Program-made: the position numbers and the translations under genes
The notes under the pieces: generated by a model
What the model saw: the letters and a program-made list of their open reading frames with translations, nothing else
Told to the model about the DNA's origin: nothing
Databases searched by the model: none
Source: Cellulomonadaceae bacterium
GTDB taxonomy: Bacteria > Actinomycetota > Actinomycetes > Actinomycetales > Cellulomonadaceae
Direction: 5' to 3'
NCBI GenBank assembly: GCA_031552185.1
Contig: JAVBMU010000024.1
Location: 185 to 64,184 of the forward strand
DNA: 64,000 nucleotides
In this document: in pieces, positions 1,941 through 19,133 of the stretch
Layout of the letters: the number at the start of each line of letters is the position of its first letter
How positions within the stretch are numbered: the first letter of the stretch is position 1

Positions 1941-2573
1941 TCAGCGCGAGTGCAGTTCGTTGTTGACGCCCTGGTTCTGGACGACACTGGGCCGGCCAGT
2001 TCTCCAGGTGACCTTGTTGTTGGCGCCCGAGACCGAGACCGACGAGACGGACCGCGCATGAACCTCGTTGTTGGTGCCGGTTACGGTGAGGGTGCCGATC
2101 ACACCGGCGGTGACCTGCGCGTTGGCGGCCGAGACCTTGACCACGGCGCAGTCGGGCAAGTCCACCTCGGCGTTCACCTGGGTGATGAGCGCCGCACCGT
2201 CGGAACAGGACAGTTCGACCGCAGACCGGGGGCGGGGGCCGGAAGCAACGGAGTCGGCGCCGTCGCCCACTTTGACGCCGTCCGGGCCGATGGACACGTC
2301 GGCGCCGGCCCCCTCGCCGTCGCCCACTTTGACGCCGTCCGGGCCGAGCGACGCGCCATTGCCCTCGCCGTCGCCCACCTTGACGCCGTCCGGGCCGAGC
2401 GACGCGCCATTGCCCTCGCCGTCGCCCACCTTGACGCCGTCGGCTCCCAGCGAAACCGATGCGTCCTTCTTTGCCTCGCCCGCGTCGCCCCGCAGGGTAT
2501 CCAGCGAGCAACCGCTGACGGCCAGGACGACGCTGACGGCAAGTGCGCTCAGACTCGCAGTACGAATGTGCAT
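1941..2573 (-). CDS. Lipoprotein with Gly/Asp-rich 17-aa repeats and a DUF3060-like C-terminal domain
   Basis: ORF 1941..2630 trimmed to ATG 2573, preceded by GGAGG. Signal plus lipobox 'LAVSGC'. Repeats 'GPDGVKVGDGEGNGASL' x4. C-terminal 'C..G....V.G.NN.V' periodic pattern typical of DUF3060. Confidence 0.75.
   Translation of the reverse strand: MHIRTASLSALAVSVVLAVSGCSLDTLRGDAGEAKKDASVSLGADGVKVGDGEGNGASLGPDGVKVGDGEGNGASLGPDGVKVGDGEGAGADVSIGPDGVKVGDGADSVASGPRPRSAVELSCSDGAALITQVNAEVDLPDCAVVKVSAANAQVTAGVIGTLTVTGTNNEVHARSVSSVSVSGANNKVTWRTGRPSVVQNQGVNNELHSR
2255..2450 (-). repeat. In-frame 51-57 bp tandem repeats (4 copies) inside the DUF3060-like lipoprotein gene
   Basis: The motif GTCGCCCAC(C/T)TTGACGCCGTC recurs at 2262, 2319, 2370 and 2421. 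Confidence 0.85.
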
Positions 2574-2644
2574 GATTCCTCCGGTTGTCATGATGTCGGA
2601 TCGCCGGCCCGGCGGGATGAGACGTCCCACGACGGGCAGGCGGG

Positions 2645-3901
2645 TCAGAACGTGGGAACGAAGATCTCGACCCGGCGATTGAGCGCGCGTCCGGCCGGGT
2701 TGTCCTTGCCGTCCGCCTCGTTCGGGGCGACCGGTTTGGTCTCGCCGTAGCCGGTCGACTGGATGGTGGCCCGCACACCCTGGCTGCGCAATGCGCTCGC
2801 GACCGCCGCGGCTCGGCGTTCGGACAGGTCCAGATTAAAGCTGTCCGTGCCGATGGAGTCGGTGTGTCCGCCGATGAGCGCCTTGGGTGCTTCGAGGTCC
2901 GTGAGGGCCTGGGCGACCGAGCCCAGCACCTTGCCGGCCTCGGGCCGGATGTCGGCCTTGCCGAAGTCGAACAGGACGCCGTCGGATAACGTGATCGTCA
3001 CGCCGCACGACTTGACCGGCTGAAGCGTACCCATCGACGGGAATTTTCCGGCGTCGGGAACCGGAGCCAATGGCTCTGCCCGGACCGGATCGCCGTTGAC
3101 CAGGGCGGTTCCCTTGCCGTCATTCTTGATCGTGAGGGTGGGGTCGCTGTAACGACCCGACCCGTCGCCGTTGTTGACGATCGTGACGGTGGGGTCGCTG
3201 AACCGGCCCGAGCCGTCCCCGTTGATCACGATCGTGGTGGTCGGGTCGCTGTACCGGCCGGCGCCCTTGCCGTCGATCTGGACGGTGACGGTCGGGTCGC
3301 TGAACCGGCCCGAGCCGTCCCCGTTGACCAGGACCGTGGTGGTCGGGTCGCTGTACCGGCCCGAGCCGTCCCCGTTGACGACGACTGTGGTGGTCGGGTC
3401 GCTGTACCGGCCGGCGCCCTTGCCATCGTTCTCGATGGTCGTCGTCGGGTCGCGGAAGGTCGCCGCGCCATCCCCGACGACGACGGTCCCGCCGCCATTG
3501 CTGATGACCCGGCCTTCCCCGTCACACTTGGCCGCGGTGACCTGGAGCCCTTCGTAGCTGCCGATTTTGCGCTTGGTGTCGATGGCGAAGCCGGCCAGAG
3601 ACTCGTTCAACATGGACAGGTCAGGGATCACGAAGAGCGGGATCGGCGGAATCTCCCCGGGCCGGTATCCGCGCACGGTCGGCAGGTCGCTGGCCGGGTC
3701 CTCAGCGATCGGCGTCGACCCGCCCGCACCGGCTCCCGAACCCGTTGCAGAGTCGGCGCCCGGGCCGGATGCGGAGTCGGCCTGGTTCGCTTCTTTGTTG
3801 TTCGTTTCGCCGCCGATGCCGAGCGAACAAGCGCCGGTCATGGCGATGGCCACAAAGACGGCGGCGGCGCCGAACGGACGATGAGTGGAAGAAATCTGCA
3901 T
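2645..3901 (-). CDS. OmpA/MotB-domain lipoprotein with seven 17-aa repeats
   Basis: ORF 2645..3901. Lipobox 'MTGACS'. Repeats 'NGDGSGRYSDPTTTVxV'. C-terminal OmpA_C motifs 'GHTDSIGTDSFNLDLSERRA' and 'NRRVEI'. Confidence 0.85.
   Translation of the reverse strand: MQISSTHRPFGAAAVFVAIAMTGACSLGIGGETNNKEANQADSASGPGADSATGSGAGAGGSTPIAEDPASDLPTVRGYRPGEIPPIPLFVIPDLSMLNESLAGFAIDTKRKIGSYEGLQVTAAKCDGEGRVISNGGGTVVVGDGAATFRDPTTTIENDGKGAGRYSDPTTTVVVNGDGSGRYSDPTTTVLVNGDGSGRFSDPTVTVQIDGKGAGRYSDPTTTIVINGDGSGRFSDPTVTIVNNGDGSGRYSDPTLTIKNDGKGTALVNGDPVRAEPLAPVPDAGKFPSMGTLQPVKSCGVTITLSDGVLFDFGKADIRPEAGKVLGSVAQALTDLEAPKALIGGHTDSIGTDSFNLDLSERRAAAVASALRSQGVRATIQSTGYGETKPVAPNEADGKDNPAGRALNRRVEIFVPTF
3125..3480 (-). 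repeat. Seven in-frame copies of a 51-bp tandem repeat inside the OmpA-family gene
   Basis: GGGTCGCTG recurs at 3141, 3192, 3243, 3294, 3345, 3396 and 3447, an exact 51-bp period. Confidence 0.9.
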
Positions 3902-4016
3902 GCTCCGACCATAGGGCGCTGTTGATGCCCAAAGGCCTCAGAACCGACCCAAACCTGTCGCAGACCTGCGACAGTCGGGACCGGCCTGGCGACGGCCGTC
4001 TCAGAGGGTCGGCACG

Positions 4017-4165
4017 TTAGATCTCGACGCGGTCGGTTGAGCGCCCGCCCGGCCGGATTGTCCTTGCCGTTCGCCTTGGGCGTGACGGGTTCAACTCAGT
4101 GCGGGTGCGTTCGATATCTGCGCGGATCTCCTCCGGTTCGGTACTCGACCCCGAAGCGCGAGCAC
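4017..4165 (-). pseudogene. Chimeric gene remnant: a DUF3618-like N-terminus fused to a frameshifted 3' end of an OmpA-family gene
   Basis: 4018-4100 aligns by eye at about 75% with the 3' end of the OmpA gene (2655-2740), encoding '..KANGKDNPAGRALN' then, after a 1-nt shift, 'DRVEI*'. Upstream, 'STEPEEIRADIERTRTEL' resembles DUF3618 N-termini. No start codon is present. Confidence 0.45.
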
Positions 4166-4210
4166 CACCGCGATCAGCAACCAGACGGCCGGCCCGATGA
4201 GGGCGGACGG

Positions 4211-5764
4211 CTAGCGCCGCCGGAGCAGCGTCAGATGCATCGCGTCGGTGCCATGGACGTCCGGCCACAATTGCACGTCCATCCGCTCGCCCAGCGGCAT
4301 CTCGGCGCCGTCGCGAACGACCGCCCGGACGGCGGCCGGCGCGTCGAGGAGTTCGACGTCGTCGCGCCGCTTGAGGACGTCGGCGACCACGAGGCGAGTC
4401 TCGGCCAGGTGGGGCGAGCAGGTCACGTAACCCACCACGCCGCCGGGCCGGACGGCGTCGAGCGCCGAGGCCAGCAGCTCCCGCTGCAGGCCGGACAGCA
4501 CCGCGAGGTCGGCCGGGGTCCGCCGCCACCGGGACTCCGGCCGCCGGCGCAGGGCGCCGAGGCCCGTGCAGGGTGCGTCGAGCAGGACCCGGTCGTAGCC
4601 GGCCGGCTCGTCCATCCCGACGGCGCGGCCGTCGCCGACCCGGACCTCCGCCGCCGCCGGGAGGGCGGCCAGCGCGTTGCGGACCAGGTCCGCCCGGTGC
4701 GGTTGGACCTCGTTCGCCACCAGGCGGGCACCCCGTCCGACGGCGAGCGCGGCGAGCAGGGCGGCCTTGCCGCCCGGGCCTGCGCACAGGTCGAGCCACC
4801 GGTGGTCCGTGCCCTCAACCGGAACCGCCGCGAAGGCCAGCGTGACGAGTTGGCTGCCCTCGTCCTGGACCCCCGCCCGGCCGTCCCGAACGGACGCGAA
4901 CCAGCCCGGGTCGCCCGACTCCAGGACGTGCGCCGTCGGCGCCCACCGCCCCGGCGCAAGCGACGCGTCCCCGGCGAGCTCGGCCGGATCGACCAGGCCC
5001 GGGCGCGCGACCAGCGTGACCCGGGGCGCGGCATTGTCGGCGGCGAGCAGGGCGGGCAGGTCCGCCGCCTCGCGGCCCCCGGCGACGAGCGCGGCGCGCA
5101 GTGCGCGCACGATCCAGGCCGGGTGGCTCTCGACGGCGGCCAGCCGGGCGACCTCGTCCGGCGTCTCGGCGCCGATCACCGCGAGCCACTCATCCAGTGA
5201 CCGCTCGCTGACCCGGCGTAGGACGGCGTTGACGAACTGACCCGAACCGATGCCGGTCCGCGCCCGGGCCAGGCCCACCGTCTCCGAGAGCGCGGCGTGG
5301 GGCGGGACCCGCATGCCGAGGAGTTGGTGGGCGCCGAGTCGCATGATGTCGAGGACCGGCGCCTCGATCTGGTCCAGGGGGCGGTCCGCGCACCGGCTCA
5401 GCACGGCGTCGTATCGTCCGCGCAGGCGCAAGGTGCCGTAGGCGAGTTCGGTGGCGAAGCCGGCGTCCCGGCCGCGGACCCGGCGCTCGCGCAGCATCTG
5501 GGGCAGCACCAAGTTGGCGTACGCATCGGATGCGTCGACGGCGCGCAGGGTGTCGAAGGCCGCCATCCGGGCCGGGTCGGTCGCCCGCCGCCGCTCCCCC
5601 GGCGCCACGGCGGTGTGGTGGGCATCGCCGCGGGTGCGGGCGGCGCCGCGCTGGCGCCCGGACGCGTCGCGGCGGTCGCCGCCGCGGGGACCGTCAGCGC
5701 GGTCGCGGCGCGGGCCGTCGCCGCGACGGTCGCCGCGCCGCTCGCCGTCCCGTTGCCCGGTCAT
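4211..5764 (-). CDS. rsmB: 16S rRNA (cytosine967-C5)-methyltransferase RsmB/Sun
   Basis: Last 517 aa of ORF 4211..7489. NusB-like N-domain, SAM motif 'DLCAGPGGK', catalytic 'DAPCTGLG' and 'TCS'. The ATG at 5764 overlaps the fmt stop (ATGA). Confidence 0.9.
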
Positions 5765-6801
5765 GCGCCGGCCCCGCTCGGCGCCACTCCGCTCGACGCA
5801 ACATTTCCGGAAGCACCACCGCCGCAAGCACCCCGAACGGACGCACCACCAGCGGGCGTCGCCGCGCCGTTGATCGCGCCCAGCACGGCGTCGTCGGCCA
5901 AGCGCGCGCCGCGCGCCCAGTCCGCCGCCGCCATGTGCTTGCGGCCGGCCGCAGCCACGAGCCCCAGTTCGACGGCGTGCGACGCGGTACCGACGAGGAC
6001 GTCGCGCCTGCCCGCGCGAACCCGGCCGGGCGGGAGGTCGACGACGTCGGGCCGGGGCCGGACCGGGCCGAGGCCCAGCCGGGCGCCGTCGGGCAGGGTG
6101 GTCCACGCCCCGGGCACCGGGGTGCACCCGCGGATCAATCGATCCACCGCAAGCGCCGGGTGCTGCCAAACGACGCGGGCGTCGGCGTCCGTGAGCTTGG
6201 CGGCCGCGCTGACGCCGTCGCCCGGCTGCGGGATCGGCTGGGCGGAGCCGTCGGCGATCGCGTCGAGGGTGGCGAGCAGCAGGCCGGTGCCGCTGGTGGT
6301 CAGTCGATCCAGCAGGTCGCCCGCGGTGTCCCGCGGGCGGACCGTCTCGGTGGTGGCGCCGTAGACCGGCCCCTCGTCGAGTCCGGGGGTGATCCGGAAG
6401 GTCGTCGCCCCGGTGACCTGGTCCCCCGCGATGATGGCTCGCTGGACCGGGGCGGCGCCGCGCCATGCCGGCAGTACGGAGAAGTGCAGGTTGACCCAGC
6501 CGTGGGCGGGGATCGCGAGGACCTCCGGCCGCAGGATCTCGCCGTAGGCGACGGCGACGGCGCAGTCGGGCGCGAGGTCGCGCAGCCAGGCCTCGAAGTC
6601 CGTGCCGCGTGGGCGGTCGGTCCACACGGGCAGGCCGGCCGCCTCGGCGCGGGCCCGCACGGGGCTCGGGGCGAGCGTCCGGCCCCGGCCGGTGCGGGCA
6701 TCGGCCCTCGTCAGGGCGGCCACCACCGTGTGGTCGGAGTCGAGGAGGGCAGCCAGCACGCGGACCGAAACCTCGGGCGTGCCGGCGAAGAGCAGGCGCA
6801 T
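5761..6801 (-). CDS. fmt: Methionyl-tRNA formyltransferase
   Basis: ORF 5761..6801. '[10 protein letters not shown]', '[24 protein letters not shown]'. Confidence 0.95.
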
Positions 6802-6828
6802 GGTCGCGAGTGTAGCCGCGGGCGGGTG

Positions 6829-8055
6829 TCAGTCCCCGGCGAGCGCGGCCAGGAGGGCCGCGCGCGCATCGTCGAGCGGGATCCGCTCCTGCTCGATCCG
6901 CCGAAAGGCCGCCGGGCCGGCGGTCGCGACCGCCGCGTACGCCTCGGCCTCGGCCGCCGTGAGCCGGGTCAGGCGCGTGGCGGCCGGCCCGAGGCGGCGC
7001 CCATGGCGGTCGTGATCGACGCCGAACGCGGCGTAGCGCTGCAAATCCGCCACGTCCATCAGGATCGAGCGGACGGCCGCACCGGCGGCGCCGGGTGTCA
7101 CGGCGGCGAGGGCGCCGCGGAGCCCGTCGAGGATCGCATATCCGTCGCCATCCATGTCGCCCCAGTAGAACACCCGCGCGCCGCGCAGCCACGGCACCTC
7201 GGCGAGCAGGGCGGCGGCCGCTTTGCCCCCGCCCTCGACCACGATCGTCCCGGGCGCCGGCGGAAACCACAGTCGGCTGTCCCGGTTCTCGACCACCAGG
7301 ACGGCGTGCGGCCGGTACGCGATCTCGTGCCGGTCGCCGGTGGTCCAGGCGTCGTGCCGACGCCGGCCCGTCGCCAGGTAGTCCGGATCGACATAGGTGA
7401 GGTGGACGACGGCGGGTCGGGCCCGCAGCTCGGCCCGCAGATCCCGCCCGACGACGACGCGGAGCAGCCCGCCGTGGGCTTCGACCCACTTGGAGTCCAT
7501 CCCGGGCACCGGCAGTTGCCGAGCGGTCCAGCCGCCGAGGTCGGCGTGCTCAGCCAGCCAGGTCGCGGCGCGAATCAGGACGTCGACGTCGCGGTCGGCT
7601 TGCCGGTACGCCGCAGTGAGGACCGCCGGGGTGAGCGCGACCCGCGCCGCACGCAGCCGGGCGGCAACCGAGCGGGCCCGGTCGACGTCGACGGCCGGCC
7701 TCGGCCCACCGAGCCGATCGAGCAGCGCGACGGCTGCATCCAGGCCCTCGACGTGCAGCGCGAAAGGGACCGCCACCGGCACCCGGGCGAGGTTCACCGC
7801 TCGGTGCTCGAGCCGGACCCCGGGCAGATCGGCGCCGTCCAAGGCCCGCCAGGCGGCGCGCCAGGTGTTCCAGGCATCCAGCCCGACGCCGAGCACGGCG
7901 GTCTCGCCCGTGACGCCGGGCCGCAGCGGACAGGCGATCGGACGGTCCGGTTCGGCGCCGCCGAACACGGCGCAGATCAGTTCCGCCCAGCGCCGATCGA
8001 CGGCGGCCGCCACGCGCTCGGCGGCCTCCGCAGGCAGGACGAGTCGGGGACTCAT
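6829..8055 (-). CDS. jetD: Wadjet JetD-like protein (DUF3322/DUF2220-type, Toprim nuclease domain)
   Basis: Last 408 aa of ORF 6829..9234. Toprim-like 'LVVENRDS' and 'YWGDMDGDGYAIL'. The ATG at 8055 overlaps the jetC stop (ATGA). Last gene of the four-gene set. Confidence 0.85.
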   Translation of the reverse strand: MSPRLVLPAEAAERVAAAVDRRWAELICAVFGGAEPDRPIACPLRPGVTGETAVLGVGLDAWNTWRAAWRALDGADLPGVRLEHRAVNLARVPVAVPFALHVEGLDAAVALLDRLGGPRPAVDVDRARSVAARLRAARVALTPAVLTAAYRQADRDVDVLIRAATWLAEHADLGGWTARQLPVPGMDSKWVEAHGGLLRVVVGRDLRAELRARPAVVHLTYVDPDYLATGRRRHDAWTTGDRHEIAYRPHAVLVVENRDSRLWFPPAPGTIVVEGGGKAAAALLAEVPWLRGARVFYWGDMDGDGYAILDGLRGALAAVTPGAAGAAVRSILMDVADLQRYAAFGVDHDRHGRRLGPAATRLTRLTAAEAEAYAAVATAGPAAFRRIEQERIPLDDARAALLAALAGD

Positions 8056-11000
8056 CCGCCGGGCCGGGCCGAACGAGCGGCATCCGCCGACCGGGCGGGC
8101 TCCGCCGGAAAGCCGACCTTCAGCTTGGGCCGGGAGTGGCCGCGGGTGTCCTTGAGGATGTCGTACTCCACATCCACGTGCGGCTCGATGGCGCTGTACT
8201 TGTCGTTCGGGGCACCGATCACCAGTTGGAAGCCCAGCCCGCGCCAGGCCCCAATGGCCCGGCCGGTGAAGTGCGCGTCCGCCTTGATCAAGGCCTCGTC
8301 GAGGAAGACCGGCGCGTACCGGGGCCGCGCGGCCCCGGCGTCGCCCAATTGATACCGCAGCGCGGCCCCCACGATGAACGCGACGAGTTCCTGCGACTCG
8401 CCACCGGATTTCTCTCCGATGTGGTCGTACAGCGCGACGTGTGCCATGGTCTCGGCCTGCACCTTCTCGGCGCTCACCCGCACGTGATTGCGCACGTCCA
8501 CCAGGTCCGCGAAGTCGGGCGCGGTGCGGCGCAGCCGGCCGATCACGTCGACCATCCGGGCATAGGCCGCCTGCCGATCGGCGTCGGTCGAGGCCCGATC
8601 GATGTAGGCGCGCACCTGCCGCAGGTCCCGGCGGAATCGTTGCCGCACCGCGCTGTGGTTCTCCTGGGTGTCGATCCGCAGCCGGTGCCGGTCGTCGGCG
8701 AAGGGCAGGTCCGCGAGGATGGCATTGATCGGCTCGATCCGGTCCTTGATCTCCCGGATGGCGCGGACCAGCGTGCCGTCCAGGTTCGTCAGGTCGTTGC
8801 CGGAGAGGGTCAGCAGGCTGTCGCGCCATTCCAGTTTCAGCTCGTGCAGCCCGTGGGTCTCCAGGTCGCTCAGGATCGTTTCGAAATCCCCGTACGCACC
8901 GTCCGGGTCGGCCATCAGGTTGGGATTGGGCCAGCGATCGAGGAAGGTCTCGAAGGTCTGCCCCAGGGCGCCGCGCGCCGCCTCGATCGCGGCCGACGCC
9001 GCGGCCTGCTCGGCGCGGAGCCGCTCGGCCGCGCGGCGCAGCGCGCTGTCGAAGTCGGCCAGGGCGAGGGCGGGTTCGGTCAGCTCCGCGCCGGCCGGGG
9101 CCTCGAACAAATCCTCCAGGTACGCCCGCTGCACCGGATCGACGCCGGCGCCGACCCCATCCACACCATCGCCCGCGCCGACGACGTCGAGCAGCCCCTG
9201 GGCGATGTCGACCTCGTCCGTGGTCCTGGACCACTTGGCGGCCAGAGCGTCCCGGTCGCCCTTGGCCTTCCCGAGGGCCTCGCGCAGGACGTCGGCCTTC
9301 TGCTTGGCCTCATTGTGGCGGCGCTGCAGATCGCCGAGTTCGGGATTGCCGCCGGTGATCTTCTCGATGACGCTCAGCCAATGATCCCGGTCCCCCTCGG
9401 CGGCGACGACGTCGACCTCATCCCAGGCGAGGTCGAGGACGGTGGCCAGGGCGGCGCGGCGCTCGTCGACGGCGTTGAGGTTCTTGACGGCCCGTTCGAC
9501 CGCCGCATCGCACGTGGCCAACGCCGCGCGGGCCTCGTCGATCTGCTCGCCCAGGCGCGCGATCAGCCGGGAGTTCGTGAAGCCCAACACGTTGAGCCGC
9601 CCGTGCCCGCCGTGGGCGCCGCGGCTGCCGCGGGAGAGCTGACCGGTCCGGGTCAGCGCCTTGCGATGCTGCCCGAGTTGGCCGGGTGTCTCCACGCAGA
9701 CGTAGTCGAATCGGCTCGTCAGGACGTCCTGCAGCCAGCCGGTGAACGGCGTCCGGCGGTAGTCGAGCCGGCCGGGCAGCGTCCGGTCGTCGAGGGCGGG
9801 GCCACGCAGGCCGGTGTGCACGCCCTCGTAGCGGATCCGCGTCCCGGTCCGCACCGCGTCGATCGCCGTGCGGAACGAGGACAGGTGGGCGGCGTCGATC
9901 AGCATCGTCGTGGCGAACGAGCCGAGGGCGAGGTTGATCGCCTCCCGCCAGACTTCGTACTCGGTGCGGACCTCCACCAGTTCGCCGACGAACGGCAGGT
10001 CCTCCGGCGTGAGCCGCGCGGCCGCGGCCAGCGCGGCCCGCGCCTCGTGCAGCGGCTGCGGAATATTGTCCCGACGCCGTTGAGCGCCCGAGCGCTCGGC
10101 CTCGAGTCCGGTCAGCGTCCCCCGGGCGTCCCGCTGCTGCGCCATGGCCTCGGCGAACTCGGTGCGGGCCGCCTCGCGGGCCGCCTCGCCGACCGCCTCG
10201 GCCCGGGCGCGGGCCGTCAACTCCGCGAACTCCGCCGCCGTCGCGACCGGCCCGCCCAGGACGGTGAGGGCGTCGTCGAGCCGCTGCCGCTGCTTGCCGA
10301 CGCTCAGCAGGCGCTCCTCGGCGCCCCGGCATTCGTGTCGCGCTCGCTCGAGTCGGTCGCCGCCCGAGGCGCTCAGGGTCTGCGCCAGCCCGTCGCGCTC
10401 CAATTCGGCGGACGCCAGGCGCGACTCCTGCTCCTGGACGACCGCGACGGCCTCGCCGTGGCGCTGCCGCACCTCCTGCTCCACCGCCCGCAGCAGGCTC
10501 AGCCGGCGTTCGGCCCGCCACCGGGCCGCGGGCGAGGACTCGTCGTCGAACGAGCCGATGTGTTCGATCGTGTCCCGCCGCTCGGTCGCCGCGCGCAGCG
10601 CCTTCCGGTGCTCGCGGATCGGGGTGAGCACGCGCACCTGCTGCGCCGCGACGCGCATCCGTTCATGGGTCGCGGCGAGTTGGTCGAAATGCGCGACGAC
10701 GGCGTCGGCGGCGGCGAGCGTCTCCGGCTCCTCCAGGACCATCCGCTTGTAGAGGTCGTCGACCGTCGTGATCTGTTGCCCGGCCTGGATGCGGCCCAGC
10801 AGGCTCACGGCCTTATGCCCGCCGCCGGCCGCCCCGATGCCCAGGGTGGAGTGCAGTCGCGCGGTGAAATCCCGGTCGGTGTCGAACGGGGTCAGGCCGG
10901 TGGCCGCGACCGCCGGCTTGCCGAACCGCGCGGCGGCCGCCGCGGCGAGGTCCATGAGGTCGAAGGCGTCGTCGCGGGTCGCCCGGACTGCGGTGACGTC

Positions 11001-11468
11001 CTCGAGGGTTCGGGCCGCCACCGGCACGTACCAGGCCCGCACGGCGGAGAACAGGGCCCCGGTCGGGTCGACCCAGGTCATCGCGATCCCGGTCCAAATG
11101 TCCCGGTCCTCGCCCCGCAGCACGCGCACTTTCGTGCCCTCGTCCGTGCGCGACTCGTCGAGTTTTCCGCGGGCGTAGGAAAGGATGTTGCGCTGGTCCT
11201 TGCCGCGCGGGCGCCCGACGACGCCGCCGTTGGACGCCCCGTTGAACGGTGTGGTGTGGGGCATGAGCAGCGCGATGTAGGCGTCCATCAGGGTGGACTT
11301 GCCCGAGCCCGAGCCGCCGCACAGCAGCGTCGCCGTCGGCGAGAACCGGACCCGGTGCGGGCCGCCGTCGTACCCGCCCCAGTTCACGAGCTGAAGATCC
11401 CGGGCGATCCATTGCTGCCCGCGCGAGGCAGCGGGAATGAGCCCGAACAGGGTGTCGATCATGCTCAT
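8052..11468 (-). CDS. jetC: Wadjet JetC-like SMC/MukB-type ATPase
   Basis: ORF 8052..11468 (1138 aa). Walker A '[15 protein letters not shown]', signature '[11 protein letters not shown]', Walker B '[12 protein letters not shown]'. Long Ala/Arg/Glu/Leu-rich central region consistent with a coiled coil. ATGA overlaps on both sides. Confidence 0.85.
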
Positions 11469-12139
11469 CGCGCCGGCTCCGCGCTGGTGCCCTCGGCCCG
11501 GTCCCCGGCCGCAGGCTCGGTTCGGGCCCGCAACCAGCGCTTCAACTCGGCCAGGCGCTCGGTGCTCAGCACGATCTCAACGAGCGGGGTGATCCGGAAT
11601 CGCCCCACGGACTCCTCCTGAATGATTCCCTCCCGCTCGAGACGTTCGATCGCCCGGCGGATTTCCGCCTGCGGGCCGGCGATCCGGCCGTCCGCCGCAT
11701 CGTAGTAGGTGAGAACGGTCTGTTCGATCTCCTCGACGTCGACCCGGGCGGAGGCCTCCCCCGCGGTGCGCTCCCGCTGGAGCACCGTGCGCAGATGGAC
11801 CAGGACGAGCGTCTCCGCCCGGCTGTACGGGTCGTCCTTGAGCAGGATGGGCACGTCGAGGTCGGCGGAACGCACCTGCCGCTTGTAGGCGATGCCCCGT
11901 TCGTGGTCCACCACCAGCCGGACGAACAGATCGTGCAGCCGCGACTCGATGGTCGGCTGGTGGGTCAGGAGGGTCTGCCACAGCCGCGGGCTTTGCTCCG
12001 CCTGCAGGAACCGGCGCTGCAGCAGCCGCACGAGCACCCGCCGCACCTCGGGGTCGAGGACGCCTCGGTCGCCGGCGAAGCATTCGGCCGGGTCCTCCTC
12101 CATCGACACGGGCTCGATGAACCCCGCGGCGTCACTCAT
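11465..12139 (-). CDS. jetB: Wadjet JetB-like protein (DUF4194-like, MukE/MksE analogue)
   Basis: ORF 11465..12139 (224 aa). Acidic helical protein with '[13 protein letters not shown]...[26 protein letters not shown]', recognised as DUF4194-like. Lies between the jetA-like and jetC-like genes with overlapping stops and starts. Confidence 0.8.
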
Positions 12140-13715
12140 CGTCGGTCTCCGTCCGTCCCGGGGCTGTGGTCGGGGCTGTGGTCGGGGCCGTGGTCACCGC
12201 GCCGAACGCGAACCGCCGCGTCGTCCCGTCGGCCCGGCGGGCGTCAACGGCGGATACCTGGCCCGTCTCGGTCAGGCCGTAACTATGCGCCACCTCGAGC
12301 AGACCGAGCAGGTCCACCGGGCGGCGAAGGGCCGGGGGCGCGGCGTCGAACACGGCCGCGATGTCCACCGGGCCGCCGTCGGCCGCGACGGCGTGCAGGT
12401 GCTCCTCGAGGAGCGCGTACTGCGGGCCACCCCACGCCCGCAGGTCCTCCTCCGCAAACTCGGCCTCGTCGGTCCAGTCCGACAGGTCGGCCGGGAGCCG
12501 GGGCGGGTGGAGGTCGCCGAGCGACTGGCGCAGGCGCGCCACCTCGGCCACCGGCAGCCGGCGCAGCGGTTCGATCGGATCCGCCCGGCGCGAGCCCGGC
12601 AACCACGCCTGGAGCCCGGACATCACATCCCGCAGCAGATCGTCCACCTGGCGGTCACGGGCCGGATCGTGCGTGCGAACCTGGGTGGTGATGACGTGCG
12701 ACGCCTGCCGCTGCGCCGCCAATACCTCGTCCACGCCCTGCTGGATCCGGCGGCCGACGGCGCCCAACTCGGTCTGTTGCACGGCGTCGAGCCGGCGCGC
12801 GAACTGGTGCCGGAGCACCGTCCGCAGGTGCGTCGACAGGGCGTCGATCCGCCCCGCATCGCCGATCAGGTGCATCGCCCCGTCGAAGGCGCGGCCCTCC
12901 GGCGTCGACTCCAGCACGTGCCGCCCGCGCTGCAGATACTCGCGCAGCACCTCGCCGCTCGGGCGCACGTCCTGGCGCAGGTCCGTGACCGTGTCGCGCT
13001 GCATCGCCTTGATCGACTCCGCCACCCGGGCGAAGTCGGCCGGCAGTTCCCGGACCAGGTGCAGGACGTTCTCCGCCTCCTCCAGGAGCCGCTCGTCGGC
13101 GACGGCCTCGATCGCGCCGCCCCGTTCCAGGCGGGCGAGTTCCGCCTGGCGGTCGCTGATCTCATCCGCGAGCCGCGCGATCCGGACCGCGACGTCCGGA
13201 TCAGTGTCCTGCGCCAGCCGTTCCACCGCTTCGAGCAGCGTCCGCACCCGCGATTCGGAGACCCGCGCCCGCTTGCTGCCCGCCCGACCCGCGATCTCCA
13301 GGGCGCCCACCGCGTGCGCGGACAGCCGATAGACCTCCGTGTCGCCCTCGATCTGCGGCAACAGCCAGCCGACCTTCGCCCAGTGCCGGCACAGGTCCCG
13401 GCCGGTCCCCGCCGGAATCGGCGGGTCGCCGTCGTCGACCTCGCCGTAGCCCGCTGCCCGCAGTTCGGCCAGCATGTCGCCGACGTGGAGATGCGCGTCG
13501 GCCACGCTCACCGTGGGCCGATCCGCGGTGAAGACCACCGACAGCGCCGCCACCACAAACGGGGCGTACCGGCCGTGCAGCAGGCCGAGCATCGGGCTCC
13601 GGAAGGCGGCGACAGCGCCACGGAAAGCGCCCTCCGCACGTGTGTTCAGCATCGATACCAGCGTATCCAACGCCCGGACGGGCGATCGGGCCGCCCGCCC
13701 GCGCCGTCCGACCAC
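12132..13715 (-). CDS. jetA: Wadjet JetA-like protein (DUF3375-like, kleisin-type MksF analogue)
   Basis: ORF 12132..13715. All-helical protein of about 500 aa without catalytic motifs, resembling DUF3375 and sitting first in the set. The 13715 start is a GTG directly abutting the HAD stop. An alternative ATG at 13652 gives 'MLNTRAEG'. Confidence 0.8.
12160..12195 (-). repeat. 12-bp x3 in-frame tandem repeat encoding '[12 protein letters not shown]' at the JetA C-terminus
   Basis: GGGGCTGTGGTC x2 plus GGGGCCGTGGTC, read at 12160-12195. Confidence 0.85.
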
Positions 13716-14351
13716 TCAACTCGGCGCGACCGCGACCCCGAGCCCGATCAGCGCCGCCCGCAGGCCGCGCACGCCGTCGAACAGGTGCGTCCGCAAGCCG
13801 CAGGCCTCGGCCGCGAGCAGATTCGCGGGCGAATCGTCGACGAACAGCGTCCGCCCCGGGGCCAGGCCGAAACGCCGGATGGTCACGTCGAAGATCAGCG
13901 GGTCGGGTTTGGCGAGCCCCACCCGGCCGGAGACGAGGACGTCGTCGAGCAATGTGGTGGCCGGCGCCGCGCCCGCCGCGTGGTGGAAGGTCTCGGCCGA
14001 CCAGTTGGTCAGCCCGTACAGCCGCAGCCCGAGGCCACGCAGCTCGCCCACCAGTTCCGCCGAACCCGGGATCGGACCGACGAGCGAGGCGGCAAAGTTC
14101 GCCACATACAGGTCGAGGTTCGGCCCGTGCTCCGGGTGCGTCGCGACGACGGCGCGGCGGGCGTCGGCCCAACTGCGCCCGCCGTCCTGCAGGTGGTTGA
14201 GCGCGGGAAAGTCGATCTCGGCGAAGAACCGCTCCACCTCCGCCCGGGACAGGTGCCCCTCGTAGGCGAGGTAAGGATCCCAATGCACCAGGACGCCGCC
14301 GAAGTCCAACAGGACGGCGTCGATCAGGCGGGGCGTCGGCCGTGGCGTCAC
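13716..14351 (-). CDS. HAD-superfamily hydrolase (subfamily IA-like)
   Basis: Last 211 aa of ORF 13716..16937. Motif I 'LLDFGGVLV', motif II 'LTNWS', motif III/IV 'KPDP...FVDDS'. The GTG at 14351 overlaps the priA stop (GTGA). Confidence 0.8.
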   Translation of the reverse strand: MTPRPTPRLIDAVLLDFGGVLVHWDPYLAYEGHLSRAEVERFFAEIDFPALNHLQDGGRSWADARRAVVATHPEHGPNLDLYVANFAASLVGPIPGSAELVGELRGLGLRLYGLTNWSAETFHHAAGAAPATTLLDDVLVSGRVGLAKPDPLIFDVTIRRFGLAPGRTLFVDDSPANLLAAEACGLRTHLFDGVRGLRAALIGLGVAVAPS

Positions 14352-16621
14352 ACCAGCTCCCTGGGGTCGAGTTGGGCGCGGACGGTCCCACCTTCCCGCC
14401 GGGCGGAGCGGACCGCCATCGACGCCGCGACCTGCGCGGCCAACGCCGCGCCCGCGGCGGCCGGGACGCGAATCGCGACCCGCACCTTCGGGTCCAGGGT
14501 GGGTTCGGCGGTGTGGACCTCGGTGGGTCCCAGGACGGCCTGCGGCGTGGCGAGTTCGATCCGGCCGACGACGGCGGCGACGGCCGCGCGGTCCCCCGTC
14601 ACCGCCGCCACCCGAACGGCCGGCGGCAGGCCGAGTTCGAGCCGGTCGGCGAATTCCCGGGCGGCCAGCCCGCCGGGATCCCACCGCACCAGGGCGCCGG
14701 TCGGCGCCGGGGCAGCGTCCCCGACCAACAGCACTTGGCCGCCGGCTGCCGCCGGCCGGACCAGGCTCGCCGCAGCGAGCCACCGGTGCAGTGCCCGGGT
14801 CGCCACGTCGAGCCCGACGGGCGTCGTGCTCGCCGCGGCGTCGAGCAGCAACGCGGCCGCGTAGCCCCCGGGTGCGGCGGGTTCGGCGCCCGGCGTCGCC
14901 ACCACCAGCGCGGGGCCGGCCGGTACCTCCGACAGCACGCCGCCGGGCGCGCTCGCGGCCGAGACCCGCACCGGCACGCCCGGGAAGGCACGGCCGAGTT
15001 CCTCGGCCGTGCGGGCCGAGCCGACCCGGATCGAGCGCAGGGCCGTCCCGCCGCAGGCCGGGCAGCTCCAGCCGCCGGGCAGCGCGCCGCACCAGGTGCA
15101 CTGCGGCCCGGCGCCGGCCGCGGGTACCGCGAGCGGGCCGTGGCAAACGGAGCACCGCGCCGGCTCCCGACAGCGGGCACAGGCCACCACGGGCAGGTAG
15201 CCGGCCCGCGGCACCTGCACCAGGACGGGCCCGGCGGCGAGGGCCGCCTTGGCCGCGCGCCAGGCCGCCGACGGGATCCGCGCGGCGGCGCCGGGACCCT
15301 CGTTGGCGAGTTCGGCTGAGGTCAGCGCCCGCACCCGCGGGCCGCGGGCGCGCAGAACGGCCCGGGGCGCGGCCAGTTCGCGCGCCCACCCGGATTCGAG
15401 CCGGGCCTGGGCCTCGACCGTGCGGCCGAGCGAACCGATCAGCATGGCGCACGTCTCCAGGCCGGCCCGAATCGCGAGCACATCCAGCGCCTGGGGGTAG
15501 GGCGCGCGCGGCTCGGTGAGCGTCTCCTCGCCGTCGTCCCACGTCACGATCAGGCCGAGGTCCCGGACGGGGGCGAAGGCGGCAGCCCGGGTGCCGACGA
15601 CGACGCGGGCGGAACCGCGCAGGGCGGCCAGGAAGGCCCGGTAGCGGGCCGCGGGACCCTGATCCGCGGTCAGCCTGACCACCGGCGCCGCTGTGTTCGA
15701 GCGGTCCGGCTCGGGCAGGCCGGCCGCGGCCAGGGCCGCGCAGACCCGCGCCACGTCGCGGGCATCCGGCACGACGACGAGCGCACCCCGGCCGCTGCGC
15801 ACCGCCACCGCGGCGGTTCCCGCGATCGCCGCTGCCCAATGCGGGCCGGCCGCGCCGGCCGCGCCCGGCAGGGCGGTCCACACCGCCCGCGGGGCGTGCC
15901 CGGCAGCGAGATGGGAAAGGAAGGCCGCCCCGCCCCGGTAGTCCGCCCACGCCGCGCCCGGCGTCGGCCCGGACCGGTCGCCGAACCCGGGAACGGATGC
16001 CGAATCGGGGCCGATCCGGGGCTCGGTCCCGGGCTCGGTCCCGGGCTCGACGGCCGGCGCCGCGGTCCCGGCCGCCTCGACCCGGGCATGCCGCGGCGGG
16101 ATTGCCAGCCGGAGCACGTCCGCGAGGGTGCCCGCGTACCGGTCCGCCACGGCCCGGGCCAGCCGCGCCACCTCGGGGGTCAGCACCGGTTCCGCCGAGA
16201 CGACCCGCCGCAGCGGCAGCAACCGACCCGGGTGCTCGCTCGCCGCCACCCGGGCCAGCAGGTAGCCGCCGACATCCTGCCCGCCGAACCGGGCCCGGAT
16301 CCGCACGCCGGGCTGCGCATCGGCGTCCATCGCGGCCGGAACGAGGTAATCGAAGACGCGGTCCAGGTGGGCAGGCTGCAGTTCGAGCGCGACCCGGGCG
16401 ATCGGGCGCTCGCCGGCGAGGGCCGGCTCGGCGCGGGACCGGGCGCCGGCCGCCCGGGCCTTCGCGGGCGGCGTCAATCCCGGCAACGCGCCCTGCGCCC
16501 CGATTTCGGTCGACGGCGGCCGCGCGGTGGTCGTTGCCGACGGCCCGGGCAACGTGCCCCGGCCGGCCTCGGTCGACGGCGCCGAGCCGGGCCGGGCGCC
16601 CGGGCCCGAACCGTCGCCCAT
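14348..16621 (-). CDS. priA: Primosomal protein N' (PriA)-like
   Basis: ORF 14348..16621. 'LDRVFDYLVP' 3'-DNA-binding-domain signature. Cys-rich zinc region 'CARCREPARCSVCHGPL...CTWCG...CPACGG'. Lies downstream of metK, as in other actinobacteria. Confidence 0.85.
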   Translation of the reverse strand: MGDGSGPGARPGSAPSTEAGRGTLPGPSATTTARPPSTEIGAQGALPGLTPPAKARAAGARSRAEPALAGERPIARVALELQPAHLDRVFDYLVPAAMDADAQPGVRIRARFGGQDVGGYLLARVAASEHPGRLLPLRRVVSAEPVLTPEVARLARAVADRYAGTLADVLRLAIPPRHARVEAAGTAAPAVEPGTEPGTEPRIGPDSASVPGFGDRSGPTPGAAWADYRGGAAFLSHLAAGHAPRAVWTALPGAAGAAGPHWAAAIAGTAAVAVRSGRGALVVVPDARDVARVCAALAAAGLPEPDRSNTAAPVVRLTADQGPAARYRAFLAALRGSARVVVGTRAAAFAPVRDLGLIVTWDDGEETLTEPRAPYPQALDVLAIRAGLETCAMLIGSLGRTVEAQARLESGWARELAAPRAVLRARGPRVRALTSAELANEGPGAAARIPSAAWRAAKAALAAGPVLVQVPRAGYLPVVACARCREPARCSVCHGPLAVPAAGAGPQCTWCGALPGGWSCPACGGTALRSIRVGSARTAEELGRAFPGVPVRVSAASAPGGVLSEVPAGPALVVATPGAEPAAPGGYAAALLLDAAASTTPVGLDVATRALHRWLAAASLVRPAAAGGQVLLVGDAAPAPTGALVRWDPGGLAAREFADRLELGLPPAVRVAAVTGDRAAVAAVVGRIELATPQAVLGPTEVHTAEPTLDPKVRVAIRVPAAAGAALAAQVAASMAVRSARREGGTVRAQLDPRELV

Positions 16622-16624
16622 GGC

Positions 16625-17833
16625 TCAGATCGCGGCGAGCAGGTCGGCGACCCGGTCGGTGCGCTCCCAGGTGAAGTCGGGCAGATCGCGGCCGAAGTGC
16701 CCGTACGCGGCGGTCGCGCCGTAGATCGGCCGCAGCAGATCCAGGTCGCGGATGATCGCGGCCGGCCGCAGGTCGAACACGGCGCGGATCGCCGCCGCGA
16801 GCCGCTCGACCGGCACGGCCTCGGTGCCGAACGTCTCGACGTACAGCCCCACCGGGTGCGCGACGCCGATCGCGTACGCCACCTGCACCTCGCACCGGCG
16901 CGCCAGCCCCGCCGCGACCACGTTCTTGGCCACCCACCGGGTCGCGTACGACGCCGACCGGTCCACCTTCGAGGGGTCCTTGCCGGAGAAGGCGCCGCCG
17001 CCGTGCCGGGCGCTGCCGCCGTACGTGTCGACGATGATCTTGCGCCCGGTCAGCCCGGCGTCCCCGCGCGGGCCGCCGACCACGAACAATCCGGTCGGGT
17101 TCACGAACAGCCGAAAGTCGCGCGGGTCGAAGCCCGAGGCGTTCCCGGCAGCCTCGAGCACCGGCAGCACCACCGCCTCCTGCACCTGCCGGTGCAGTTT
17201 CTCCTGAACGACGTCCGGATCGTGCTGGGTGGCCACGACGACGGTGTCCAGCCGGACCGGCCGGTCGCCGTCGTACTCGATGGTGACCTGAGTCTTGCCG
17301 TCCGGGCGCAGGCCGGGCACGCTGCCGTCCCGGCGCACGGCGGCGAGCCGCTCGGCGAGCCGGTGCGCCAGCCAGATCGGCAGCGGCATCAGGGCCGGCG
17401 TCTCATCGCAGGCGTAGCCAAACATCAGGCCCTGGTCGCCCGCGCCCTGGGCGTCGATGGGATCGTGCCGGGCGCCGGACTCGTCGACCCGCTCCTCCAG
17501 CGACTTGTCCACGCCCTGCGCGATGTCGGGCGACTGCTGGCCGATCGAGACGGAGACCCCGCACGAATCGGCGTCGAACCCGATGGCCGAGGAGGTGTAG
17601 CCGATCCGCCGCACGACCTCCCGGATCACCTGCGGGATCTCGACGTACGCCTCGGTGGTCACCTCGCCGGCCACGTGCACGAGGCCGGTCGTCACCAGGG
17701 TCTCGACGGCCACCCGCGAACCGGGATCCTGGCGCAGCATGGCGTCGAGGATCGCGTCGGAGATCTGGTCGCAGACCTTGTCGGGGTGACCCTCGGTGAC
17801 GGATTCTGAGGTGAACAGGCGCTGGTTGGACAT
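16625..17833 (-). CDS. metK: S-adenosylmethionine synthase
   Basis: ORF 16625..17833. '[24 protein letters not shown]', '[12 protein letters not shown]', '[16 protein letters not shown]'. Confidence 0.97.
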
Positions 17834-17843
17834 GACGCTCAGC

Positions 17844-19133
17844 CTACGTGCCGACCGGCATGTCCGGGCGCATCGGCCGATCGTCGAGAATCGCCGCCAC
17901 GGCGTCCCAGATCGCGTCCGCCACGGTCGCCTTGGTGCCCTCGGCCACGGCGACCACCTCTCCGGTTCGGTCGAGGATCGTCACCGCGTTGTCCGGCGTG
18001 CCGAACCCGCGCCCGGCGCCGACGGCGTTGACCACCAGCAGGTCGGCGCCCTTGCGGCGGGCCTTCGCCCGGCCGTGATCGAGCACCGTTCCGGTGTCGT
18101 CGCCCGTCTCCGCCGCGAATCCGATCACGACCTGCCCCGGCTGCAGCCGGTCGGCCGCGAGTTCGGCCAGGATGTCCGGGTTCTCGATCAGCTCGATCGG
18201 GGTCGGCGCCCGGCCGGCCACCTTCTTGGTCTTGGCCTCGCCCACTGCGGCCGGGCGGAAGTCCGCCACCGCGGCGGCCATGACGACGACGTCGGCATCC
18301 TTTCCCGCGGCCCGCACGGCAGCCCGCAGCTCGGCTGTGTTCTCCACCGGCACGACGGCGACCGAGCGGGGGTCCGCCCGGGTCCCGGAACCGTCGAGCG
18401 CGGCGTCGAGCACGTCGTTTGCGAGGTTGGCGGCGACCAGCGTCACCCGCGCGCCGCGGCGGGCCGCGGTTGCGGCCAGGGCCGCGCCCTGCCGGCCGCT
18501 GGACCGGTTGCCGATGAACCGCACCGGGTCGATCGGCTCGCGGGTGCCGCCGGCCGAGACGACCACGTGCCGGCCGGACAGGTCCGCACCCGGTCCGGGC
18601 GCGCCCCGGGGCGCGACCAGGGCCAGCGCGGCGGCGGCGATCTGCGCCGGATCGGGCAACCGCCCCGGCCCCGAGTCGGCGCCGGTCAGCCGGCCGTCGG
18701 CCGGATCGAGCACGGTGATCCCCCGGGCGCGCAGCGTCGCCACGTTGGCGACGGTCGCGGGGTGCTGCCACATCTCCGTGTGCATCGCGGGCGCCATGAG
18801 CACCGGGCAACGGGCGGTCAGCAGGGTGGTGGTGAGCAGGTCGTCGGCCCGCCCGCCGGCCGCCCGGGCGAGCAGGTCGGCCGTGGCGGGCGCGACGACG
18901 ATCAGCTCGGCTTGCCGCCCGAGGGCGACGTGGGCGACGCCGGCGGCGTCGTCGAACACGTCCGCCGTGGCGGGCTCACCGGACAACGATTCCCAGGTGG
19001 GAGCGCCGACGAACCGCAGGGCGGCGCGGGTGGGCACCACCCGCACGGCGTGTCCCGCCTCCCGCAGGAGCCGGAGCAGCAGGACGGCCTTGTAGGCCGC
19101 CACGCCGCCCGCCACGCCCAGGACGATCCTCAT
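17844..19133 (-). CDS. coaBC: Bifunctional phosphopantothenoylcysteine decarboxylase / phosphopantothenate-cysteine ligase
   Basis: Last 429 aa of ORF 17844..19361. '[15 protein letters not shown]', '[23 protein letters not shown]'. The ATG at 19133 is preceded by GGGGAG. Confidence 0.92.

Follow-up and report, generated by a model that had tools for sequence, protein, structure and literature searches.

A complete type I Wadjet system, most likely a lineage-specific insertion between two housekeeping genes of a Cellulomonadaceae bacterium

We analyzed a 64,000-nt stretch of DNA from a Cellulomonadaceae bacterium (contig JAVBMU010000024.1 of assembly GCA_031552185.1; hereafter, the window), in which four adjacent, co-oriented open reading frames on the minus strand (13652-6829) form the series jetA-jetB-jetC-jetD. 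Coordinates are collected in Table 1. The stop of each gene overlaps the start of the next, by 8 nt between jetA and jetB (ATGAGTGA) and by 4 nt, ATGA in both cases, at the jetB/jetC and jetC/jetD junctions, in agreement with the 4-8 nt overlaps described in an earlier sequence-only reading of this DNA. That reading had also let the cluster extend to 13715, where a GTG would start jetA directly against the upstream gene for a HAD-family hydrolase. We corrected this start to the ATG at 13652, where 59 related loci have their homologous start codon; in addition, position 2 of the PADLOC JetA1 profile aligns with residue 25 of the longer ORF. HAD and jetA are therefore 63 nt apart.

Table 1. Features of the jetABCD locus, in window coordinates and in the direction of transcription.
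Feature	Position	Strand	Description	Evidence
HAD-family hydrolase gene (left flank, native)	13716..14351	-	GTGA overlap with priA	Pfam Hydrolase/HAD_2
GC-rich hairpin	13675..13701	-	11-bp stem, 5-nt loop, in the 63-nt HAD-jetA spacer	
Putative -10 hexamer TACGCT of jetA	13660..13665	-	7 nt upstream of jetA ATG, leaderless-type	
jetA (kleisin-like, DUF3375)	12132..13652	-	506 aa from ATG at 13652	Pfam, PADLOC
jetB (KITE/MukE-like, DUF4194)	11465..12139	-	224 aa; 8 nt overlap with jetA	Pfam, PADLOC
jetC (SMC/MukB-like ABC ATPase)	8052..11468	-	1138 aa; 4 nt overlap with jetB	PADLOC, Pfam, motifs
jetD (DUF3322 N-terminal domain and Toprim nuclease domain)	6829..8055	-	408 aa; 4 nt overlap with jetC	Pfam, PADLOC
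Putative native fmt -10 hexamer TACACT	6809..6814	-	7 nt upstream of fmt ATG, inside the 27-nt jetD-fmt spacer	
fmt (methionyl-tRNA formyltransferase; right flank)	5761..6801	-		Pfam Formyl_trans_N and Formyl_trans_C

Profile searches bore out the claim of a complete JetABCD-type system, since all four ORFs were matched by both Pfam and PADLOC models and, within PADLOC, the type I Wadjet defence profiles gave the top score for all four proteins. JetA matched DUF3375 (PF11855) with 391 bits over profile positions 3-471 of 474, and JetA1 with 674 bits over positions 2-483 of 492. JetB matched the full DUF4194 profile (PF13835) with 140 bits and nearly the entire JetB1 profile with 355 bits, and was also hit by PF21980 (MksE); the MksE and MukB N-terminal models of Pfam gave weak matches among the Jet proteins. 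For JetC, the match to JetC1 reached 1587 bits (positions 1-1117 of 1119), accompanied by Pfam matches to AAA_29 and SbcC_Walker_B and by similarity to the solved JetC structures 8DK2 (E 1.6e-49) and 8AS8 (E 1.4e-40). JetD was matched by DUF3322 (PF11795) and JetD_C (PF09983) in Pfam, by nearly the entire JetD1 profile (257 bits), and by the Corynebacterium glutamicum nuclease MksG (8B7F; E 1.1e-14). The motifs quoted in the sequence-only reading were all found, namely Walker A GSGSGKST at residue 52, the signature SGGESQ at 1021 and Walker B VFLDEA at 1054 of JetC, and VVENRDS at 254 and WGDMDGDG at 298 of JetD. An NCBIfam search returned no match for any Jet protein or for HAD, and phmmer found no match between JetD and solved JetD chains at E <= 0.001. 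None of the four reading frames is broken by a frameshift or internal stop, and we conclude that together the genes make up an intact type I Wadjet (JetABCD) system with every component in place, equivalent to MksBEFG and EptABCD.

The system lies within a co-directional housekeeping array, pyrF...mihF-gmk-coaBC-metK-priA-HAD / jetABCD / fmt-rsmB, as had been read from the sequence. Pfam matches identified these neighbors as pyrF, Y_phosphatase3, a mihF-like H2TH_5 gene, gmk, coaBC, metK, priA and HAD upstream and fmt and rsmB downstream; the order of priA and HAD, and their overlap, are identical in loci L062-L065 of relatives. The neighbors checked within ~7 kb on either side of jetABCD were all housekeeping genes, with no integrase, transposase or other defence gene among them. 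A search for tRNA and Rfam RNAs gave no credible RNA gene by the cassette, and a repeat search, including a wider one that returned only GC-rich chance matches, gave no significant flanking repeat, so that the earlier remark on the lack of an integrase, tRNA or flanking direct repeat holds. Neither a target-site duplication nor any other insertion scar was identified for jetABCD, nor was a donor, and by its surroundings the locus classes neither as borne on a mobile element nor as part of a defence island. Two candidates were rejected along the way: a 10-nt inverted match at the two cassette junctions (CGCGGGCGGG), equalled by ~6% of random pairs of window segments, and a tRNA-Ser call at 15337-15436, 100 nt long and within priA, for which Rfam gave no support.

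Such an address could mark jetABCD as an ancient resident within the priA-fmt operon, compositionally ameliorated and carried on one long housekeeping transcript together with genes for replication restart and translation initiation. The tight co-directional packing and the lack of mobile-element marks are in line with this reading, as is an intrinsic-terminator scan of 4000-18000, which found no canonical terminator between HAD, jetABCD and fmt (and two plus-strand terminator-like sites versus 2.7 expected), so that transcription may run through to some extent from priA-HAD or into fmt. The accompanying consensus sigma-70 scan predicted no promoters, and this scanning, for promoters and terminators alike, is uninformative for this organism. 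The GC-rich hairpin between HAD and jetA was rejected as a terminator, as it lacks a U-tract, was missed by the terminator scan and is not significant (-31.6 kcal/mol for 13666-13716, z = -1.6, with 16 of 200 shuffles as stable; z = -0.4 over 101 nt), though it is a possible transcription barrier.

The putative -10 elements argue against the single transcript. The hexamer before jetA matches the mycobacterial -10 consensus TANNNT in motif and spacing (PMC3898074), and a TAnnnT hexamer precedes the homologous jetA start by 6-9 nt in 57 of 59 actinobacterial Wadjet loci, many of which are from closely related Microbacterium genomes and hence not independent; the background rate of the hexamer, measured in fmt loci only, is about 0.0005 per position. 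At the other end, among the 25 relatives whose Fmt is at least 63% identical, 22 have a TAGRMT-like hexamer at the same distance before fmt, irrespective of the upstream sequence, against a background of 0.0005 per position. Judged by motif, spacing and conservation, jetA and fmt are thus apparently each preceded by a leaderless promoter of their own. The 27 nt between jetD and fmt (6802-6828), in which the sequence-only reading saw no obvious promoter spacer, hold the conserved hexamer, and the proposed expression together with the replication-restart and translation-initiation genes is not supported, given the conserved elements before both jetA and fmt. An internal promoter had been named in the sequence-only reading as a finding at odds with its proposal, and conserved predicted -10 elements were found at both these places.

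We then compared the priA-fmt interval among relatives. None of ~85 syntenic loci contained a Wadjet system, including those of the nearest genera Oerskovia, Cellulosimicrobium and Paraoerskovia. In Oerskovia flava, Cellulosimicrobium funkei and Paraoerskovia sediminicola the order is priA-HAD-fmt, with HAD-fmt spacers of 9 nt to ~490 nt, and in one metagenomic relative HTH and BenE genes occupy the spot held here by jetABCD; the 80 further fmt loci in this count likewise lack jet genes. Homology to the relatives restarts ~5 nt past the jetD stop, where the window reads CCCGCCCGCGGC-TACACT compared with CCCGCCCGCCG-TAGACT in O. flava. Across relatives the interval ranges from 40 nt to 5.8 kb with mixed cargo. 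We considered whether it is a defence hotspot and rejected this, as ten other long intervals carry a miscellany: MFS transporters, GNAT, glyoxalase, an endo/exonuclease-phosphatase-family protein, VanY, lycopene cyclase, galactokinase, a cytidylate-kinase-like protein and def. An ancestral member of the array would be expected at the same position in related genera, and jetABCD was found there in none of them. The view of an old, ameliorated resident copy is therefore not upheld by the comparison.

The relatives of the cassette itself are scattered. Whereas the best matches of Fmt are all from Micrococcales (the best named being Oerskovia and Cellulosimicrobium, at 75% identity), the closest homologues of JetD are only 52-59% identical and spread over several actinobacterial orders, with Actinomadura, Nocardia, Promicromonospora, Brooklawnia, Agromyces and Saccharomonospora as best-match hosts. 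This taxonomic conflict also speaks against the ancient resident. For the four proteins, the identity of the closest homologue is at most 59% (JetD) to 74% (JetB); the lack of a close cassette homologue could suit long residence, and the JetD value rules out that any sampled donor passed on the cassette very recently. All eight places holding six of the closest JetD homologues, and all 60 JetC loci, have other contexts, and neither priA nor fmt lies beside a homologous Wadjet system at any of the 68 places examined. The cassettes of Promicromonospora panici (L067), Actinomadura sp. (L068) and metagenomic genomes (L069/L151) share the gene order, the 8/4/4-nt overlaps, a high GC3 and the TAnnnT hexamer, 7-9 nt before jetA, with ours, at 56-74% protein identity, but they too have other contexts, e.g., DUF4037...jetABCD...VanY, and none sits in a priA-fmt array.

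Base composition had also been read as a sign of amelioration. The GC3 of the jet genes is 0.89-0.92, compared to 0.914 ± 0.032 in 38 other genes of the window, and their codon-usage distance lies inside ±1.2 sd, i.e., both are the same as the host's, as an ancient resident would be expected to show. The G/C-saturated third positions noted by eye thus do match those of the neighbors, but they lose their value as a sign of amelioration: homologous cassettes in other actinobacteria have an equally high GC3, mostly 0.89-0.98 with one jetD at 0.80, so that a host-like GC3 is uninformative on the age of acquisition. More generally, host-like GC3 is not to be equated with amelioration where all likely donors have the same extreme composition.

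Together, these results make an ancient resident unlikely. Since jetABCD is missing in syntenic relatives, has scattered homologues and an uninformative GC3, and carries a conserved -10 element of its own, the cassette is most likely self-contained and horizontally acquired, and it most likely came to lie between these two housekeeping genes by an insertion specific to this lineage. Our preferred reading, which we consider probable from the sequence comparisons, is that of a predicted functional type I Wadjet system, whose four genes arrived together by horizontal transfer as a compact cassette and lodged between the native HAD gene and the native fmt promoter. As the closest genomes compared have only ~75% Fmt identity, the acquisition may be fairly old within the host lineage.

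Two other readings concern what the genes do. One would make them a domesticated condensin of the MksBEF/MukBEF kind, serving chromosome organization or segregation, with plasmid restriction secondary or lost, which would explain the address beside priA. JetABC does have the architecture of a MukBEF-like SMC complex, in keeping with the Pfam MksE and MukB matches, and in a large group of Microbacteriaceae the closest JetABC-type genes have no jetD nearby, indicating that nuclease-free derivatives arise. We nevertheless regard this as very improbable, given that jetD is full length, coupled to jetC and has kept its metal-binding and candidate catalytic residues, that the type I Wadjet profiles fit all four proteins best, and that the position is conserved in no relative, so that the address gives no evidence of selection. 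It is just as improbable that we are dealing with a remnant, inactive or in decay, whose position between two essential genes is simply tolerated, for, although the cassette is an orphan without close relatives, direct evidence of decay is nil, the reading frames are unbroken, each protein spans nearly its whole profile, the catalytic motifs and coupling overlaps are intact and codon usage resembles that of expressed host genes.

If jetABCD is a functional, horizontally acquired cassette, as we prefer, it would have entered a short spacer within the conserved actinobacterial array metK-priA-HAD-fmt-rsmB. Transcription would start at the TAnnnT -10 element 7 nt before the jetA ATG, as its conservation suggests, and yield a leaderless mRNA on which translation of jetB, jetC and jetD is probably coupled via the ATGA-type overlaps. 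By analogy with the characterized family, JetA (kleisin), JetB (KITE) and JetC (SMC ATPase) would assemble into a dimeric loop-extruding motor that scans DNA; on small circles, this motor would stall after complete extrusion and thereby license the JetD Toprim nuclease to cut, so that plasmids would be destroyed but not the large chromosome, a mechanism treated in the Wadjet literature by 10.1101/2022.10.04.510915, PMC10889018 and 10.1101/2023.11.03.565488. The fmt gene would retain its own conserved leaderless promoter within the 27 nt after jetD, and transcripts running on from priA-HAD, or past jetD into fmt, may contribute as well. We also entertain a more speculative extension, doubtful as it stands and drawn from the same sequence signals: that read-through from priA-HAD through jetABCD into fmt-rsmB might tie anti-plasmid immunity constitutively to the growth-linked expression of replication-restart and translation genes and, more generally, that actinobacterial type I Wadjet might be a promoter-carrying, leaderless "plug-in" cassette that needs no recombinase of its own to enter the spacers of core operons and leaves the operons undisturbed.

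The importance of the locus is modest, in that Wadjet is common in Actinobacteria, where 42% of genomes are reported to carry it (10.1101/2023.03.30.534874), and its mode of action has been established in other hosts. New is a well-preserved type I member from a poorly sampled lineage of Micrococcales, which illustrates that a large defence cassette can occupy a core housekeeping array cleanly, without a mobile-element scar; because it lies just upstream of the conserved fmt promoter, the array stays intact. Actinobacterial type I Wadjet also seems to travel with its own leaderless -10 promoter, which would explain how it functions at many unrelated addresses.

Among known systems, the MukBEF/MksBEF condensins share the SMC-kleisin-KITE architecture of JetABC but have no JetD/MksG nuclease and act on the chromosome, whereas our cassette does encode the nuclease, in a gene coupled to jetC. 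The JetABCD systems of Pseudomonas aeruginosa PA14 and Escherichia coli GF4-3 (8DK2/8DK3, 8AS8, 8BFN, 8Q72), which have been shown to extrude loops and then cleave circular DNA, are type I with the same subunits, and their JetC proteins match ours over ~700 residues; they are, however, proteobacterial, distant in sequence and have expression signals that are not leaderless. Closer in host is MksBEFG of C. glutamicum (mksFEBG, cg3106-cg3103), an actinobacterial type I Wadjet with a role in plasmid restriction (PMC10123090) and the same order of kleisin, KITE, SMC and nuclease, which adjoins adhA, while our jetABCD lies between HAD and fmt. MksG and JetD are distant, only the C-terminal ~245 residues of JetD being alignable, but they have the Mg/Mn-binding Glu and Asp and the EQE pair in common: E256, D299 and E388/E390 of JetD align with E236, D279 and E349/E351 of MksG, in which alanine mutants of E236 and D279 lost nuclease activity. 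Tyr258, the proposed catalytic residue of MksG, aligns with Gly277 of JetD, a difference that has also been reported for JetD-type proteins (PMC10123090).

The four jet genes and all other relevant genes of the priA–rsmB region lie on the minus strand of the window, which has a G+C content of 70–80%. By Pfam, the upstream genes are pyrF, a Y_phosphatase3 gene, a mihF-like H2TH_5 gene, gmk, coaBC, metK and priA, and the downstream ones are fmt and rsmB. The internal jet junctions, read directly, are ATGAGTGA (jetA/jetB), ATGA (jetB/jetC) and ATGA (jetC/jetD), in agreement with the 4–8 nt stop/start overlaps described in the sequence-only reading. Its identification of a type I Wadjet was likewise borne out: besides the Pfam matches (see table), the PADLOC type I models matched nearly end to end (JetA1, 674 bits; JetB1, 355 bits; JetC1, 1587 bits; JetD1, 257 bits); no NCBIfam model matched the Jet proteins. 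The ATPase motifs of JetC are Walker A (GSGSGKST) at residue 52, the ABC signature (SGGESQ) at 1021 and Walker B (VFLDEA) at 1054, and the protein matches JetC chains of solved structures (8DK2 and 8AS8). JetD aligns to MksG, the nuclease of the Corynebacterium glutamicum system (PMC10123090; structure 8B7F, numbered as chain position minus a 106-residue tag offset). JetD E256 and D299 correspond to MksG E236 and D279, metal-binding residues whose alanine mutants both lost nuclease activity (PMC10123090), and E388 and E390 to E349 and E351, the alternative nucleophile candidates. MksG Tyr258 aligns to Gly277 of JetD. Because these profile matches, JetC motifs and JetD metal-site residues are present, we judged the cassette to be a complete and intact type I system; it is almost certainly a real feature that deserves this name.

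Coordinates of the genes and putative promoter elements in the priA–rsmB region
Feature	Position	Strand	Remark
priA	14348-16621	-	
HAD-family hydrolase	13716-14351	-	GTGA overlap with priA; assigned by Pfam with corrected start
putative jetA -10	13660-13665	-	TACGCT, 7 nt upstream of ATG
jetA	12132-13652	-	Pfam DUF3375, 391 bits
jetB	11465-12139	-	Pfam DUF4194, 140 bits, and MksE
jetC	8052-11468	-	Pfam AAA_29 and SbcC_Walker_B
jetD	6829-8055	-	Pfam DUF3322 and JetD_C
putative fmt -10	in 27-nt jetD–fmt spacer, 6802-6828	-	TACACT, 7 nt before fmt ATG
fmt	5761-6801	-	
rsmB	4211-5764	-	

The best Fmt matches (66–75% identity) come from Oerskovia, Cellulosimicrobium, Paraoerskovia, Xylanimonas, Promicromonospora and Cellulomonas, which makes the host a member of an unsampled Micrococcales lineage. 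An exact copy of the fmt–jetD stretch was found in just one other contig, 4.8 kb long, from a single sequencing run. In Oerskovia flava the array runs ...mihF-gmk-rpoZ-coaBC-metK-priA-HAD-fmt-rsmB-rpe..., with a HAD–fmt gap of 62 nt. The same array is found in Paraoerskovia sediminicola (gap of 9 nt) and Cellulosimicrobium funkei (gap of ~490 nt, with two tiny ORFs), and a metagenomic relative with 74% Fmt identity has an HTH regulator and a BenE transporter at the site. When 80 further fmt loci from a metagenome scan were probed by tblastn with the window's proteins, those of sufficient length showed priA and metK upstream of fmt; none of the 80 had jet genes. Among all loci sampled, a Wadjet occupies the priA–fmt address in the window only, and the cassette is very probably a lineage-specific insertion.

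Across relatives, priA and fmt lie anywhere from ~40 nt to 5.8 kb apart, and the long intervals carry def, MFS transporters, GNAT, glyoxalase, VanY, lycopene cyclase, galactokinase and a cytidylate-kinase-like protein; more distant actinobacteria have def directly upstream of fmt. We considered the interval as a defence hotspot and rejected the idea: it is variable, but its cargo is miscellaneous. Variable spots between core genes are known homes of defence systems, and the address inside the core array is a curiosity that calls for no new principle. The stretch after rsmB is a second variable spot of the same array: in the window (1941–3901, minus strand) an OmpA-family gene and a DUF3060 gene stand where relatives have rpe, with G+C falling to ~0.68, and C. 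funkei has HipBA and a GNAT gene there. The window's Fmt has 346 aa where most close relatives have 311–317; the additional ~35 residues (5761–5870, minus strand) form a Gly/Ala/Ser-rich C-terminal tail that reaches the 4-nt rsmB overlap.

The description of a housekeeping setting with neither a credible tRNA nor meaningful bordering repeats stood. No Rfam RNA was found in window positions 1–24000, and the sole ARAGORN call, a 100-nt tRNA-Ser (cga) at 15337–15436 (minus strand), lies inside the priA coding sequence, has no Rfam tRNA match and is probably a false positive of GC-rich coding DNA. A search for meaningful repeats bordering the cassette returned none; a 10-nt inverted repeat at its junctions (CGCGGGCGGG / CCCGCCCGCG; 13675–13701 and 6815–6825), the left copy of which sits in an 11-bp-stem hairpin, was the best junction match, but ~6% of random segment pairs equal it and on its own it is not significant.

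Wadjet occurs in 42% of actinobacterial genomes compared to 7% of other bacteria, tending toward the chromosome arms in Streptomyces (10.1101/2023.03.30.534874). A genome scan with the window's JetC gave 60 loci, chiefly Microbacterium and Agromyces (57–63% identity), none with priA, fmt, metK or rsmB within 10 kb. For JetD the top database identity was 59%, and the 52–59% band spans Actinomadura, Nocardia, Promicromonospora, Brooklawnia, Agromyces, Saccharomonospora, Amycolatopsis and Frankia, a spread without taxonomic signal, whereas the Fmt matches are all Micrococcales. The eight places examined, which cover six of the JetD homologues nearest to the window's, all hold a cassette of the same four genes joined by the same overlaps, in unrelated contexts (identity to the window: JetA 63–66%, JetB 72–74%, JetC 62–64%, JetD 56–59%). 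Horizontal gain in the window's lineage is the most economical reading.

One context, DUF4037 ... jetABCD ... VanY, recurs, with both flanks in Promicromonospora panici (L067), DUF4037 upstream only in loci L151 and L152, and VanY downstream only in L150 and L153; it may be where this cassette subtype normally resides in Promicromonospora-like genomes. Among the Microbacteriaceae loci with the closest JetABC homologues, 47 of 53 have no jetD within 10 kb on either side. In locus L004 (13350–15300) jetC is followed by an opposite-strand DUF222 gene, and in L026 a 53-aa jetD remnant lies directly after jetC (13357–13515), which suggests that the nuclease gene was lost via deletion. Nuclease-less Wadjet may thus be carried by a whole clade.

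GC3 of the cassette (jetA 0.909, jetB 0.902, jetC 0.922, jetD 0.892) resembles that of the 38 other window genes (0.914 ± 0.032), and length-corrected codon-usage distances are within ±1.2 sd. The host-like saturation noted by eye is confirmed by measurement; the amelioration drawn from it is not, since homologous cassettes from Promicromonospora, Actinomadura and metagenomic actinobacteria, at loci of 71–75% G+C, are equally high (mostly 0.89–0.98; one jetD, 0.80) and a new arrival would look alike.

We placed the jetA start at the ATG at 13652, because in the PADLOC alignment profile position 2 falls on residue 25 of the longer ORF, and relatives' start codons coincide with the homologous codon; the HAD–jetA spacer is therefore 63 nt. 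In 57/59 actinobacterial Wadjet loci the position homologous to the jetA start is preceded, at 6–9 nt (usually 7), by a TAnnnT hexamer, with variants including TAGACT, TAATCT, TATGGT, TAAAGT, TACTCT, TATCCT and TACCCT amid diverged flanks. At fmt, a TAGRMT-type hexamer stands at the matching distance in 22 of the 25 relatives whose Fmt is at least 63% identical, regardless of what is upstream (background frequency at fmt loci, 0.0005 per position), and it is strongly conserved 6–8 nt before the start codon in the Micrococcales clade (relatives' fmt loci L062–L096); in Paraoerskovia (L064) the HAD stop codon forms part of it. Both hexamers match the TANNNT -10 of mapped Mycobacterium tuberculosis promoters, which lies near the TSS with no conserved -35 and with many leaderless mRNAs (PMC3898074). 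From this conservation we infer a leaderless promoter for each of jetA and fmt, and the cassette probably has its own. Homology to O. flava restarts ~5 nt past the jetD stop codon; the insertion site would be immediately ahead of the native fmt promoter, with the cassette importing its own. A consensus scan found no coding-strand terminators, and the GC-rich hairpin after HAD (13675–13701; -31.6 kcal/mol, z = -1.6 vs shuffles) is not significant, so transcription from priA–HAD may continue into jetA, and that of jetD may run on into fmt. Given the absence of jet genes from the 80 further fmt loci and the named relatives, the scattered homologues, the uninformative GC3 and the putative -10 elements, the earlier view of an old, co-expressed operon member is not supported.

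In characterised systems JetABC is an SMC motor that extrudes DNA loops, and on circular DNA below ~100 kb completed extrusion activates cleavage by JetD, with plasmids restricted and the chromosome spared (10.1101/2022.10.04.510915; PMC10889018; 10.1101/2023.11.03.565488; for the MksG nuclease, PMC10123090). By analogy, the window's JetABC and JetD would act in the same way. The window's cassette has all the sequence features required for these extrusion–cleavage steps, and this mode of action, assigned by homology to the characterised systems, is the most likely one. The window copy adds a new and divergent member to a well-known kind of system.
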